From: an uncultured Methanosarcinales archaeon
GTDB lineage: Archaea > Nanobdellota > Nanobdellia > Woesearchaeales > CAYZNE01
Length of the DNA stretch: 64,000 nt
Direction: 5' to 3'
Assembly: GCA_964405295.1 (NCBI GenBank)
Contig: CAYONI010000001.1
Span: 106,422-170,421 of the forward strand
Positions 92 to 3,429 of this stretch are shown piece after piece. The position numbers and the translations under genes were made by a program. The notes below the pieces were generated by a model. It did no database searches. It was given only the letters and a program-made list of their open reading frames with translations, and was not told the origin of the DNA. The stretch's first letter is position 1, and each line of letters opens with the position of its first letter.

Positions 92-364
92 ATGTGTAAT
101 TCTTTAGGGGAATACCTTGCAGATGAAGGAAAGCAAACTGCAAACTTATATGATTTAAAGCACATTGATACTGAGTCGTTTGATAAATTAGAAATTAATG
201 GTTCTGGTGTGTGCGATAATTGTGGTGCAGATCTCATAAAGATTGGTGGATATTGGAGATGCGAGAATTGTGACCAATATTGTTTAAATTGTGGCGCTTT
301 AGTTGAGGAAAAGGATTCTTATTGCCCTGAGTGTGGTGTTGAATTTGAGGAGGAATCAGAATGA
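92..364 (+). CDS. Small zinc-ribbon protein with four CxxC pairs (two predicted Zn ribbons). The reading frame is open back to position 2, so it may be the C-terminus of a longer protein that starts upstream of the window.
   Basis: Cys pairs CDNC, CENC, CLNC and CPEC. Its stop overlaps the next ATG (ATGA). A GAGGAGG Shine-Dalgarno for the downstream gene lies inside its 3' end. Confidence 0.5.
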   Translation: MCNSLGEYLADEGKQTANLYDLKHIDTESFDKLEINGSGVCDNCGADLIKIGGYWRCENCDQYCLNCGALVEEKDSYCPECGVEFEEESE

Positions 365-1068
365 AGAAATTAACTTGGTATCATGAATTAGGGTTCTACA
401 GTAATCCTTTTAGTATAAAACCCGCTGCATTCCATAATGATCTTTTTGGTTATGATATATTAATTGATAAATTAAATGAGCAAGTGTACAACTCAAATAT
501 TTTATTTATTCACGGGGCATATGGAACAGGCAAAACTACAATTCTTAAGAAAATTATTAATGAGTTTAGGGGTAAAAGAAAGGTTATCTATTATAATTGC
601 AACAAGCATGAAGGATCAATAGATTTTGATGGATTATTAATTGGTGCAGGAAACTTTTTTAGCAGATTATTCAAAATTAAAAAGAAGAATATGATAATGT
701 TGCTTGATGAAGCACAAGATTTAAACAAAAAAGATATGGATAATGTAAAAACTTATTTTGAACAAGATTTTTTTAGATCAGTTATTTTTGTTAGTAAGAA
801 AGAAGATATATTCTTACCTGTTGGTATAAAAAAAATTATTGGAAAAAATTATTATGATTTGAATAATATTTCTCAAGATGAAGCAGTTACTATGATAAGG
901 AAACGGATAGGTGACTTGCAGTTTTTATCTGATGAAATGATCATAAGAATTTTCAAAAGAAATAAGAATCCAAGAGCCTTCTTGAAAAATTGTGAAGATG
1001 TGTGCAGAAACACTTTTAATGATGGCGCAGAAAAGGTAACAAGTAAAGATGTTGCTAATTTTATTTAA
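361..1068 (+). CDS. P-loop AAA+ ATPase. The N-terminal region resembles an Orc1/Cdc6 core, but there is no winged-helix domain.
   Basis: Walker A GAYGTGKTT. Walker B-like hhhLDEAQD (MIMLLDEAQDL). The N-terminal pattern F..D.L.G.D..I..L......NILFIHG resembles the Orc1/Cdc6 lead-in. GAGGAGG lies 8 nt upstream of the ATG. Confidence 0.55.
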   Translation: MKKLTWYHELGFYSNPFSIKPAAFHNDLFGYDILIDKLNEQVYNSNILFIHGAYGTGKTTILKKIINEFRGKRKVIYYNCNKHEGSIDFDGLLIGAGNFFSRLFKIKKKNMIMLLDEAQDLNKKDMDNVKTYFEQDFFRSVIFVSKKEDIFLPVGIKKIIGKNYYDLNNISQDEAVTMIRKRIGDLQFLSDEMIIRIFKRNKNPRAFLKNCEDVCRNTFNDGAEKVTSKDVANFI

Positions 1069-1139
1069 TTTTATTTATTTTCTTTCTGAATCGTTCAAAA
1101 ATCCAAAAAATATATGAATTAAACTACCTTTTTCTATTT

Positions 1140-2780
1140 ATGCATCGCTTAGATAAGTCAATTATTGATGCTTTCAAAAAATTTGAAGGCAAGGAGCTTA
1201 CAACATCTGAAGTTGTTAAATTTGTATTTCCAGATGATGCCAATACTTTTGATATTGATTCAGGAGACATTCTTTTTATTGGTGGTGAAAAAAAAGTTAA
1301 AACTTCAGTAAGATATAAGAAATCATTATTGCATAAAAGACTACTTTATCATCTTAATAAGTTAGTTAAACAGAGTCTATTGAAGCTATCAGGGATTGAA
1401 GAATTTGGCGAAAAAAGATTTTCTTTGTCTGAGGATTATGATTTAGAATTAGATAAAAGCAAGAATAATTCTGTTCTTATAAGAAATAATATTAACCCAG
1501 TAACGCCAATTGAGGGATATGAATTAAAAAGAATAGTAAGAAAATTACATTCTACTCATTGGATTAATAGGTTAGATGCAGTTCTTCTAAACTCAAAAAG
1601 GTTTCAAAGTATAACCAAATTATCAGAATTATTAATAGATTTATTTGATGATGTCAATGATTGCATAGCTATAAATTCATTTGAATCACTCTTACAGGAT
1701 AAAGAAGAGAATTCTATAGAAGAGAATGTTAGAAAAATATCTGCGGATTGTACTGATTATAATAAGACTGTAGTATTCATAATTGATGTTGATAATATCT
1801 TTGATAAAGAGAAAGTTAAGGATTTTATAATTTTAATAGCTGATTTAAATAATGATAATATGCAGGTTATTTTCGAGGTTGATTCAGAATCCCTAACAAG
1901 GAATAATGTTGATTTGTTTAAATGTTTAATAGAGGAGTTCTCAAGCAAAAAGATTAAAGTTAATATTAAGAATAAGTCTATTTGTAATGTTCCAGTTTTC
2001 TTTGGTAAAGCAGGTGTTTATTCTTTTGATGAAAGAGAATGGAAACTTTATGAAAAGGAATTTGCAGATAAAACTTTTGGAGCAAGTTGTTGTTCTTCAA
2101 CACTAATAGTGGATGTATTGGAGTTTTTTAATAATTATTCAAATGCTCACGAGTTTAGAGAGTTTATACTAAAAGCAAACAAAGCATTGCTTGTTGCAAC
2201 AGTAAATAAAATAAAAGTTGCCACACATTATTTTAGAACAATAAATAAAGCCAATAAGCCCTATTCAAATGAGTTTTACTCTTTTGAAAGAAATTATATT
2301 CGATTCTGGAACTATAATTTTAAACTACTTGAAGAGGGAAATAATTTGTTAGATTTGTTTAAGACTCTAAAAGAAAAAACAGAAGAGTTTTATCTTAACG
2401 AAGAAACCATTTACAAAGCTTGTGGAATTCCAATAAGGTTTAAGGTAGTGTTCTCTTCTGCATTTAGGAAGTCTGATTTAACTATGACTCAAAGAACATA
2501 TAAGAAAACAACAATTCAGGATATAAGCTATTTTGATTCTCCTGAAACAATATCTTATCTTAAAATAAGAGAACGTCTTTTAAAAGTGTTTACTGGACTT
2601 GATAGAATAAGATTTTTTAGATCAAGTAATCTAACACCAAAAGATGTAATAAATGAATTTAGTTATATTTTACAAAATTTTAACTTGCCATTAGTCACTT
2701 ATGATTTTGCTAATATTAAGGGAAATACTAAACTTACAAGTTTTTTTAATGTGCCTAAGAAGAAAAGGAGAAAAAAATAA
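1140..2780 (+). CDS. Hypothetical 546-aa protein with no recognisable motif and a basic C-terminal tail (KKKRRKK). It is co-operonic with the ATPase and the ThyA-like gene.
   Basis: Long ORF with consistent codon usage. A 1-nt gap separates it from the next gene. Confidence 0.55.
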   Translation: MHRLDKSIIDAFKKFEGKELTTSEVVKFVFPDDANTFDIDSGDILFIGGEKKVKTSVRYKKSLLHKRLLYHLNKLVKQSLLKLSGIEEFGEKRFSLSEDYDLELDKSKNNSVLIRNNINPVTPIEGYELKRIVRKLHSTHWINRLDAVLLNSKRFQSITKLSELLIDLFDDVNDCIAINSFESLLQDKEENSIEENVRKISADCTDYNKTVVFIIDVDNIFDKEKVKDFIILIADLNNDNMQVIFEVDSESLTRNNVDLFKCLIEEFSSKKIKVNIKNKSICNVPVFFGKAGVYSFDEREWKLYEKEFADKTFGASCCSSTLIVDVLEFFNNYSNAHEFREFILKANKALLVATVNKIKVATHYFRTINKANKPYSNEFYSFERNYIRFWNYNFKLLEEGNNLLDLFKTLKEKTEEFYLNEETIYKACGIPIRFKVVFSSAFRKSDLTMTQRTYKKTTIQDISYFDSPETISYLKIRERLLKVFTGLDRIRFFRSSNLTPKDVINEFSYILQNFNLPLVTYDFANIKGNTKLTSFFNVPKKKRRKK

Positions 2781-2781
2781 A

Positions 2782-3429
2782 GTGGAAATAGTTGCTAAAA
2801 AACCAATAACTGCATGGAAAAAAACACTTCAAGCTATAATGGATAATGGTGTTGATTTTGTAGATAGAGACAAAAGGGTTTGTAGAGAGCTATTAAATCT
2901 TTTATTGGTTATAGAGTCCACAGATGATATTGAAGACCCTGTTGATGTAATGAAGAGTTTTAAGGATTTTGTTTATCCTAGTAAAGAAGAAATCGGAAAT
3001 GTTATTCTTGATAAGGTTGGTCGTTCTGGATACGGGTATAATTATGGGCAGAGGTTGTTTAATTATAAGGGTGTTAAAAATCAGATAGATGATTTTGTTT
3101 TGCCCTTATTAAAAAGTAATCCTTCTTCAAGAAGGGCAGTTGCAATTATTTATGATCCTTTAACTGATTCAAAGAAAAATAAAAAATCTATTCCTGCATT
3201 ATTAAGTGTTTATTTCAAGATTTTTAAAGGCGCTTTAGATGTTTCAATTGTAATTAGAAGTAATGATTTTTTTATTGGATGGCCTGCTAATATTCTTCAG
3301 ATTAATTTGTTGCAGAAATATATTGCTGAAAAATTAAAACTTCCAACAGGGAAACTTACTGTATTCTCAAATTCTGCCCATGTATTCCAAGAGAATTTTG
3401 ATAAAATTAACAAAATAATTGAAGATTAA
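2782..3429 (+). CDS. Thymidylate synthase (ThyA)-fold protein of the short archaeal type. The nucleophile Cys appears replaced by Ala.
   Basis: By-eye alignment to E. coli ThyA: [9 protein letters not shown] vs [21 protein letters not shown] vs [32 protein letters not shown] vs [29 protein letters not shown] vs DTHLYSNH. GTG start with GGAG 11 nt upstream. The longer ORF called at 2701 overlaps the upstream gene. Confidence 0.65.
   Translation: [215 protein letters not shown]

Follow-up and report, generated by a model that had tools for sequence, protein, structure and literature searches.

Here we report that the start of a 64,000-nucleotide stretch of archaeal DNA (GenBank assembly GCA_964405295.1, contig CAYONI010000001.1, positions 106,422 to 170,421; hereafter the window) carries two conserved gene pairs side by side: two tandem AAA+ ATPase paralogues (1-1068) and, next to them, a 546-residue protein with the predicted fold of a ribonucleotide reductase (RNR) together with a partner of the thymidylate synthase (ThyA) fold (1140-3429). 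The building blocks of DNA depend on two enzymes, ribonucleotide reductase and thymidylate synthase, whose mechanisms are regarded as invariant; in the second pair the two appear to have been repurposed together. We give about an even chance to the explanation that this pair forms a regulated, non-radical complex that binds deoxynucleotides. A preliminary description of the locus had presented the same genes as one four-gene operon, comprising a zinc-ribbon protein, an Orc1/Cdc6-like ATPase, the 546-residue protein and the ThyA-fold protein, coupled to the family-B DNA polymerase (PolB) downstream. The genes are real and uncharacterised, but they fall into two independent conserved pairs, and the apparent four-gene unit is a juxtaposition of the two that is confined to this Woesearchaeota-type DPANN lineage.

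The second pair is defined by its linkage across relatives. One genome per GTDB species was scanned, the family of the 546-residue protein was found in 108 species, and 80 loci were kept, 78 of them with downstream DNA. At all 78 loci the next gene downstream, on the same strand, is the ThyA-like gene, mostly at a spacing of -14 to +12 nucleotides (nt), and these overlapping or near-abutting stop and start codons suggest that the two genes are translationally coupled. The functional tie between them that had been proposed from the window is thus borne out. Close relatives (61-100% identity) carry the two ATPases, the 546-residue gene, the ThyA-like gene and PolB just as the window does, whereas relatives at 30-39% identity have no ATPases or PolB nearby; in these the 546-residue gene is followed directly by the ThyA-like gene, and a divergent gene for a protein of 154-164 residues lies upstream of the pair. 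PolB is not among the conserved neighbours across the 80 loci, and the PRC-barrel gene and PolB adjoin the pair in close relatives only. All relatives come from Woesearchaeota-, Pacearchaeota- or Nanoarchaeota-type metagenome-assembled genomes. Among the contigs numbered L016 to L095, many of those with the pair bear the title uncultured Methanosarcinales archaeon, while the title of one reads Alphaproteobacteria bacterium and that of another Methanobacteriota archaeon; such titles are probably placeholder or mis-binned labels.

The 546-residue protein (1140-2780, forward strand) has no match in Pfam, NCBIfam, PADLOC or PHROGs, and a phmmer search and two profile searches against PDB sequences found nothing either, and in particular no RNR. 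The earlier statement that it contains no recognisable motif is correct at the level of sequence, but structure prediction gives a clear RNR-type fold. An AlphaFold2 (AF2) model built from a 32-sequence alignment has a pLDDT of 83.2 and a pTM of 0.73, and the top 17 matches of this model in a Foldseek search of the PDB are all RNRs (E-values from 1.4e-8 to 1.7e-3, probability 1.00). The best of these are the class III enzymes (NrdD) of S. thermophilus, T. maritima and P. copri, and the 17 also include class Ib NrdE, class Ia and minimal phage class II enzymes; unrelated TIM-barrel enzymes enter the list only at E > 2e-3. The top three matches in BFVD, which holds predicted viral structures, are likewise RNRs. 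In the model a winged helix-turn-helix (HTH) at the N-terminus (residues 1-96, 1140-1427) is followed by a disordered linker, a ten-stranded alpha/beta barrel (residues ∼120-525) and a disordered tail. The barrel is built from five beta-alpha units, a beta-hairpin (286-295) and five more units, and it is this strand plan that constitutes the signature of the RNR/glycyl-radical-enzyme barrel. The winged HTH, assigned with DSSP (H3-14, H22-29, H31-37, H50-77, E81-86, E92-96), has partial matches in BFVD to ArsR-type HTH proteins (ranks 26 and 34) and contains the near-invariant residues T22, L69, L75, G90 and K92. On the strength of the model we predict that the protein has the RNR fold, which places it in a known superfamily without making it recognisable as a housekeeping RNR. 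The four-gene neighbourhood, for its part, is not conserved, and the refuting condition set in the preliminary description (a known housekeeping family for the protein and no conservation of its surroundings) thus applies by half. The family comprises 240 representatives at 50% identity, nearly all of 480-550 residues, and has no relatives in 2.9 million viral contigs, on which ground a viral origin was rejected. Literature searches on MJ0757, on RNR-like pseudoenzymes, on RNR in DPANN archaea and in Woesearchaeota, and on the methanogen-type ThyA cysteine found no description of it.

Of the defining features of an RNR, the protein retains the predicted fold alone. Conservation was counted in 153 full-length sequences with identity down to 20%, and the best-conserved positions are D174, N278, P285, G289, G292, Y294, D325, R388, N391, C428, G429, P431 and L532, together with residues of the winged helix. 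The central hairpin (residues 285-296, PVFFGKAGVYSF, 1992-2027), located by strand order in the AF2 model, has the consensus PxFxGxAGxY, in which G289 is invariant and G292 and Y294 are each found in at least 95% of sequences, and it carries no conserved cysteine. The only conserved cysteine of the family, C428 (147/153; no other exceeds 45%), belongs to the motif C428-G429-x-P431 (2421-2432), which lies two strands past the hairpin between helix 402-427 and strand 436-441. A second or third conserved cysteine is lacking, as are a Cys4 zinc site and a redox cysteine pair, and in the last 60 residues there are no conserved cysteines and no glycine-aromatic motif, RVxG[FYW] being absent. At the 80 loci no gene for a radical-SAM activase, an R2 subunit or a B12-related protein is conserved within 10 kb. 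A glycyl-radical reading of the hairpin was also considered and rejected, as its GRAGPY is unlike RVxG[FYW] and no activase is encoded nearby. The invariant polar residues inside the modelled barrel nevertheless argue that it binds something specific.

Two known systems help to place this combination of a kept fold and missing chemistry. Class III NrdD and, more widely, the RNR/glycyl-radical-enzyme superfamily share with the model of the 546-residue protein the two five-stranded half-barrels and the central hairpin, and the deoxynucleotide-metabolism setting of NrdD fits the genomic association seen here. In contrast to NrdD, the 546-residue protein shows no sequence similarity to it and has no hairpin cysteine, glycyl-radical motif, zinc site or redox cysteine pair; a winged HTH stands in place of the ATP-cone, no activase is adjacent, and a peptide resembling a PCNA-interacting peptide (PIP) box is present at the C-terminus. 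The RNR large-subunit homologues of betaherpesviruses (UL45/M45 type) are catalytically inactive proteins that keep the RNR alpha fold and act in the control of host cell death, and thus have in common with the 546-residue protein an RNR fold without catalytic residues and the non-reductase role that we propose. They are, however, viral, recognisable as RNR by sequence and without a ThyA-like partner, whereas the proteins described here are encoded by archaeal cells and cannot be recognised as RNR from their sequence. The BFVD matches of the model include, at rank 9, a “large subunit-like protein” of a tupaiid herpesvirus.

The C-terminus of the family has the consensus [NDE]-x-[KTS]-L-T-x-[FY]-[LFIM], usually one or two residues from the end, and reads NTKLTSFF in the window (2724-2747). 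L532 is kept in at least 95% of sequences and position 535 is phenylalanine or tyrosine in 151 of 153, with a short helix predicted at 532-535. A search with a PIP-like regular expression picks out 55 of the 80 family members, compared with 7 of 968 other open reading frames (ORFs). The archaeal PIP box is a C-terminal Qxx[LIM]xx[FY][FYLIM], in many cases with basic residues after it, and the present motif agrees with it in its position at the extreme C-terminus, in L532 and the aromatic pair, in the short predicted helix and, in this lineage, in a basic tail. It differs at the first position, which is N, D or E and never Q, and the peptide could instead dock on the ThyA-like partner. The KKKRRKK tail noted previously is present, but is confined to the closest relatives. 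PIP-like ends were also seen outside the family. PolB of the window ends in EQKSLFGF, which contains the PIP-like QKSLFGF, and in relatives two proteins of 448-470 residues without a Pfam match (L044:1522-2934 and L054:897-2243, both on the reverse strand) have the canonical PIP end NQAALDKFF, which makes them candidates for unrecognised replication or repair factors of Woesearchaeota.

The partner protein (215 residues, 2782-3429, forward strand) was correctly assigned to the ThyA fold: it matches PF00303 at 2e-17 (63.7 bits against a cut-off of 24.3). Its gene starts with GTG at 2782, a start that is backed by the MEI... N-termini of homologues and is preceded ∼12 nt upstream by a Shine-Dalgarno-like AGGAG. 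The protein scores 121.5 bits against TIGR03283, the equivalog model of methanogen-type ThyA, where the cut-off is 174.55. Between the SRR and RSxD motifs it aligns without gaps to the enzymes of E. coli and B. subtilis, and in this alignment Ala139 (codon 3196-3198) falls on the catalytic Cys146, P-C-H being replaced by P-A-L; the anchoring residues P145 and R166 are 20 residues apart in both. Among 120 DPANN homologues the Cys146 position is occupied by glycine in 56, serine in 42, alanine in 17 and cysteine in only 5, so that the nucleophile is replaced in 115 of 120 (96%). In the same homologues the equivalents of the dUMP-contact residues R126, R127, R166, S167 and H207 are found without exception, as is P145, and those of the dUMP contacts D169 and N177 are kept in at least 97%. 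No residue aligns with the catalytic E58, and the column of the phosphate-binding R21 varies among E, R, T, N, H and K, both in an N-terminal region where the alignment is less certain. A different cysteine, that of an RxCRE motif (residue 34), is present in 102 of 120, the remainder having F, S, T or Y. The simplest reading of these patterns is that the ThyA-like protein still binds dUMP or dTMP, without covalent catalysis. It has in common with methanogen-type ThyA the fold, a length of ∼215 residues, the lack of the bacterial C-terminal segment and the retained dUMP-contact residues; it differs in scoring below the equivalog cut-off, in the loss of the nucleophile in 96%, in the absence of E58 and the unconserved R21, and in that its gene invariably follows the RNR-like one directly.

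Two of the 78 gene pairs, L026 and L093, keep the nucleophile cysteine (NPCLISI and VPCLVAV), which suggests an ancestral cysteine whose loss, with constraint relaxed, came early or happened several times. Both of these ThyA-like proteins still have a partner with C428, and one gene pair lacks cysteine at all three of the positions compared. A split active site, in which C428 would supply the missing thiol of the ThyA-like protein, is not supported, as no compensatory pattern is seen across the 78 pairs, small as the numbers are. Separately, a RibD_C/dihydrofolate-reductase-like gene (7906-8460, reverse strand; PF01872 according to the annotation of an identical contig) lies 4.5 kb from the ThyA-like gene and possibly has a link to folate recycling.

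The second pair also appears to have its own regulation. A divergent gene of the Lrp/AsnC type, encoding HTH and RAM domains, lies upstream of the 546-residue gene in 64 of 80 loci. In the window the corresponding 153-residue regulator (9713-10174, forward strand; PF01037, 29.3 bits against a cut-off of 25) has 45-53% identity to the divergent regulator of relatives and is displaced by ∼7 kb; its orthologues also match HTH_24. In the 150 nt upstream of family starts, TATA-like hexamers peak at -25 to -34 from the ATG, which suggests a leaderless or short-leader transcript from the 546-residue gene. Just upstream of the TATA-like box, CTGAA[ACG]C occurs between -120 and -20 in 68 of 78 relatives, at a density of 18.5 per kb as against 0.41 per kb in the background (45-fold), and in many cases it takes the form of a CTGAAC-N-GTTCAG palindrome or of tandem copies. 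When a relative has its regulator gene displaced, a double motif is found in front of that gene. The 71 nt between the second ATPase and the 546-residue gene of the window (1069-1139) contain a T-rich tract, the operator-like element CTGAATCGTTCAA (1086-1098, 54 nt before the ATG at 1140) and the TATA-like AAAAAATATATG (1105-1116, ∼25 nt before that ATG), and the second pair therefore probably has its own promoter here.

The element at 1086-1098 is a degenerate copy of CTGAAC-N-GTTCAG, for which the closest relatives have a perfect palindrome at the same distance. A perfect 13-nt palindrome, CTGAATCATTCAG (9628-9640), is found in the window 85 nt upstream of the displaced regulator gene. These two elements are the only matches to CTGAAYNRTTCAG with up to one mismatch in 64 kb; two matches are not unusual in number (0.89 expected), and what matters is their positions, each before one of these two genes. 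As the element is kept before both genes, the regulator and the operon remain a small regulon after their separation. We infer that the Lrp-like protein binds the CTGAAC-N-GTTCAG element, with the winged helix of the barrel protein as an alternative candidate. NrdR and the NrdR-box, which control bacterial nrd operons, offer an analogy in that a dedicated small regulator and short palindromic boxes near the core promoter would likewise serve deoxynucleotide genes. NrdR is, however, a zinc ribbon with an ATP-cone, whereas the present regulator is of the Lrp/AsnC type (HTH plus RAM), the box sequence is different and binding is only predicted.

In the mechanism that we propose for the second pair, the 546-residue and ThyA-like proteins would assemble into a stoichiometric complex with pyrimidine deoxynucleotides as its ligands. 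We place dUMP or dTMP in the proposed ThyA-like pocket and a putative second ligand at the centre of the barrel, among the invariant polar residues, and the complex would carry out neither radical reduction nor covalent methylation. Its role would be the regulated handling or sensing of DNA precursors, and it would be able to dock on DNA via the winged helix and possibly on PCNA via the C-terminal peptide, with its expression controlled by the Lrp-like protein. Several points weigh against this proposal. Kinship with RNR is drawn from one predicted model and its Foldseek matches, without support at the sequence level, and hhalign comparisons of 32- and 150-sequence profiles with E. coli NrdD returned a probability of 0.1. 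That the hairpin at 285-296 would be the counterpart of the RNR finger loop is deduced from strand order and not from superposition. Furthermore, ∼10 invariant polar or glycine residues in the barrel, including D174, N278, D325, R388, N391 and C428, resemble an active site more than a passive scaffold. The nucleophile is kept in the five homologues counted above. Lastly, we infer complex formation and the binding of nucleotides, DNA and PCNA from models and sequences.

A different explanation, which we regard as rather unlikely, is that the two genes encode a working enzyme system of a novel type. The barrel would then be a divergent RNR or another nucleotide-transforming enzyme that uses C428 and an unrecognised source of radical or cofactor, while the nucleophile of the ThyA-fold protein would have moved (for example to the N-terminal RxCRE cysteine) or be supplied by the partner, and the system would make dNTPs or dTMP under minimal nucleotide metabolism. 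Consistent with catalysis, D174, N278, G289, G292, Y294, D325, R388, N391, C428 and G429 are invariant or nearly so at 20-40% overall identity, every dUMP-contact residue of the ThyA-like protein is kept, the RxCRE cysteine is as frequent as described above, and the two genes occur universally and in tight coupling in genomes that are subject to strong reduction. No canonical RNR or radical-SAM protein is found among the large ORFs of the window, and a search with E. coli NrdD finds no RNR in 1.16 Mb of flanking sequence, which is a weak argument for catalysis as the sample is local and says little about whole genomes. Against catalysis, the hairpin has no cysteine, and RVxG[FYW], the Cys4 site, a second or third conserved cysteine and a conserved neighbouring gene for a radical-SAM activase or a B12-related protein are all lacking. 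At ThyA position 146, G, S and A replace one another freely, and ∼20% of pairs have F, S, T or Y in place of the N-terminal cysteine, so that neither residue behaves like an essential nucleophile; nor is there compensation between C428 and the ThyA cysteines across the 78 gene pairs. Should this explanation hold, Woesearchaeota and Pacearchaeota would possess an unrecognised route to DNA precursors in which two textbook active sites were rebuilt and not lost, a prospect with a small but appreciable chance of being right. It might take the form of a new RNR class, of a non-radical barrel (using C428 and the GxxGxY hairpin) with a cysteine-less ThyA-fold subunit, or of PCNA-tethered recognition of dU or dUMP at the replication fork.

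It is improbable, in our assessment, that the likeness to RNR is an artefact produced by a generic alpha/beta barrel or Rossmann-like repeat with no evolutionary link. Such an artefact would be expected to give no signal by sequence and profile methods, as is the case, and the structural agreement is itself moderate: the TM-scores are 0.43-0.48 (TMq of the best match 0.48), although they are normalised over 546 residues of which ∼140 (winged helix, linker and tail) lie outside the barrel, and the rmsd of 7-15 Å is large, with TIM-barrel enzymes appearing lower in the Foldseek list. A generic barrel would not readily explain why the leading matches in the PDB and in BFVD are exclusively RNRs drawn from three classes, nor why the model reproduces the five strands, hairpin and five strands of the superfamily. 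The obligatory ThyA-fold neighbour, moreover, is an independent indication of deoxynucleotide metabolism.

The first pair is made up of two ATPases, and not of a zinc-ribbon protein followed by an ATPase as previously described. The 90-residue ORF that had been taken for a zinc-ribbon gene is not a separate gene, since its frame is open from base 2 of the window. Four CxxC pairs are indeed present (Pfam DZR 3.8e-6); on an identical contig the ORF forms the C-terminal third of a 286-residue ATPase with a double zinc ribbon, the full gene of which (L006:8365-9225) matches AAA_14 at 3.4e-8 and DZR at 5.4e-5. The window thus opens with the last 121 codons of this gene (1-364, forward strand), which begins ∼496 nt before it. 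As the frame belongs to the 286-residue ATPase, the locus contains two tandem ATPase paralogues. The first has a degenerate Walker B motif, with DN (in LLLDNVQ) instead of DE, and a double zinc ribbon is found on this paralogue only in some lineages. The second (235 residues, 361-1068, forward strand) is a P-loop ATPase without a winged helix, as had been reported (AAA_14 7.6e-9), with an intact Walker A (GxxGxGKT), a Walker B DE and an invariant N-terminal WYxELGFxxNPFSIKP. Its AF2 model (pLDDT 89.6) consists of an AAA+ base and lid, the chain stopping at residue 235 after the lid helices. Its family forms 274 clusters at 46-69% identity across DPANN and is always preceded by a paralogue of 210-322 residues (for example L096:5020-6726, L097:5096-6711 and L098:5372-6705), while the genes after the pair are otherwise unrelated. 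Outside this lineage nothing links the ATPase pair to the 546-residue and ThyA-like genes.

The second ATPase looks catalytically competent, and the tandem has the look of a hetero-oligomeric AAA+ machine of the housekeeping kind, in which one subunit is catalytic and the other degenerate. In Foldseek searches the model of the second ATPase is closest to Orc1 (7jgr_A, 1.7e-10), with Cdc6 (1fnn), Orc1 (2v1u), RFC and RuvB nearly equal, which bears out the earlier description of an initiator-like ATPase without a winged helix and places it among AAA+ proteins of the initiator or clamp-loader type. With Orc1/Cdc6 and RFC it shares the AAA+ base and lid and intact Walker A and B motifs, and like the subunits of hetero-oligomeric loaders it is paired with a paralogue whose Walker B is degenerate. 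It differs from Orc1/Cdc6 in lacking the winged helix, in its N-terminal WYxELGFxxNPF, which is unlike theirs, and in family scores far below the cut-offs (TIGR02928 for Orc1/Cdc6, 16.4 bits against 181.3).

The view that all four genes form a replication-associated operon, possibly close to an origin, must be judged in this light, and we find it very improbable. It draws on the resemblance of the ATPase model to Orc1/Cdc6, on the DNA-binding-type domain and PIP-like tail of the 546-residue protein, on an arrangement that is kept in relatives down to 61% identity, and on a compact layout on one strand. The gene boundaries given in the preliminary description are accurate (an ATGA overlap at 361-364, a 71-nt gap at 1069-1139 and a 1-nt gap after the stop codon at 2778-2780), and PolB lies 830 nt downstream. 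Beyond the closest relatives, however, the ATPases and PolB are found away from the RNR-like/ThyA-like pair, the ATPases standing beside unrelated genes, and the gap between the two pairs has its own operator-like element and TATA-like box. The 16.4-bit score noted above also argues against an initiator. Proximity to an origin was not upheld either: a scan of 1-7000 found no origin recognition box (ORB)-like repeats and only chance-level AT-rich repeats, and the GC skew does not turn at the locus. Scans for sigma-70 promoters and terminators stayed at background, with models that are not suited to archaea. That the locus is an ATPase-plus-effector anti-virus defence system, as was also suggested, is scarcely credible, since PADLOC links the ATPase just weakly to Nhi, PtuA, Avs4 and candidate systems (E-values from 6e-8 to 1e-3), through matches that span only the generic nucleotide-binding core around the P-loop, the 546-residue and ThyA-like proteins match no PADLOC defence model, the 546-residue family is absent from viral contigs, and both pairs are held in fixed synteny over an order-level archaeal radiation (the ATPases in the conserved manner of housekeeping genes), whereas defence islands are patchy.

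Downstream of the second pair, an ORF of 117 residues (3469-3822, forward strand), which the preliminary description omitted, has no family match in Pfam, NCBIfam, PADLOC or PHROGs and is lineage-specific, being missing from the 61%-identical relative L009. The PRC-barrel gene (89 residues, 3896-4165, forward strand; PF05239, 22.1 bits against a cut-off of 21.2) and PolB (785 residues, 4259-6616, forward strand; PF00136 1e-43) follow as had been described. PolB scores best on the “DNA polymerase II” model NF004421 (744 bits against a cut-off of 570) and not on the models for archaeal PolB1 or PolB3, and a tRNA-Gln(TTG) (6681-6753) comes directly after it; a tRNA-Val(GAC) and a tRNA-Leu(TAG) are found at 32983-33056 and 59912-59997. 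Two AT-rich elements of 40 nt (4223-4262 and 6888-6927), 73% identical and of the form ATAACATTT(T/A)TATATA...TTATGA, end at the start codons of PolB and of a gene for a 270-residue lipoprotein-like protein, and probably represent a shared promoter and leader architecture. The host is a fermentative DPANN archaeon, the window (∼30% G+C) encoding an FeFe hydrogenase, pyruvate:ferredoxin oxidoreductase, aldehyde:ferredoxin oxidoreductase and a phosphotransacetylase-acetate kinase pathway. The genes concerned form a cluster (33574-44810) in which a NuoF-like subunit and the FeFe hydrogenase (33574-36371) and phosphotransacetylase and acetate kinase (36804-38929) are followed by pyruvate:ferredoxin oxidoreductase (39433-42942) and aldehyde:ferredoxin oxidoreductase (42939-44810), both on the reverse strand. 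A UvrD-type helicase (49270-51390, reverse strand) has an N-terminal RQC-like domain and a C-terminal HRDC domain, a RecQ-like decoration that is unusual on a UvrD core.

On a practical level, the 546-residue family is invisible to sequence annotation, and current reconstructions of DPANN metabolism probably err in taking the ThyA-like gene for that of a working thymidylate synthase. The coupled pair is present in at least 108 species-level genomes and in 240 clusters at 50% identity, with its own regulator and operator, and since both proteins are of small size and look soluble, and a defined operator is predicted, the question of what the pair does is directly testable. If the pair is catalytic, it would represent new chemistry for DNA-precursor synthesis. 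If it is non-catalytic, it would be, to our knowledge, the first cellular paired pseudo-RNR/pseudo-thymidylate synthase module, and it would show how genome-reduced symbionts monitor or channel the deoxynucleotides that they scavenge.

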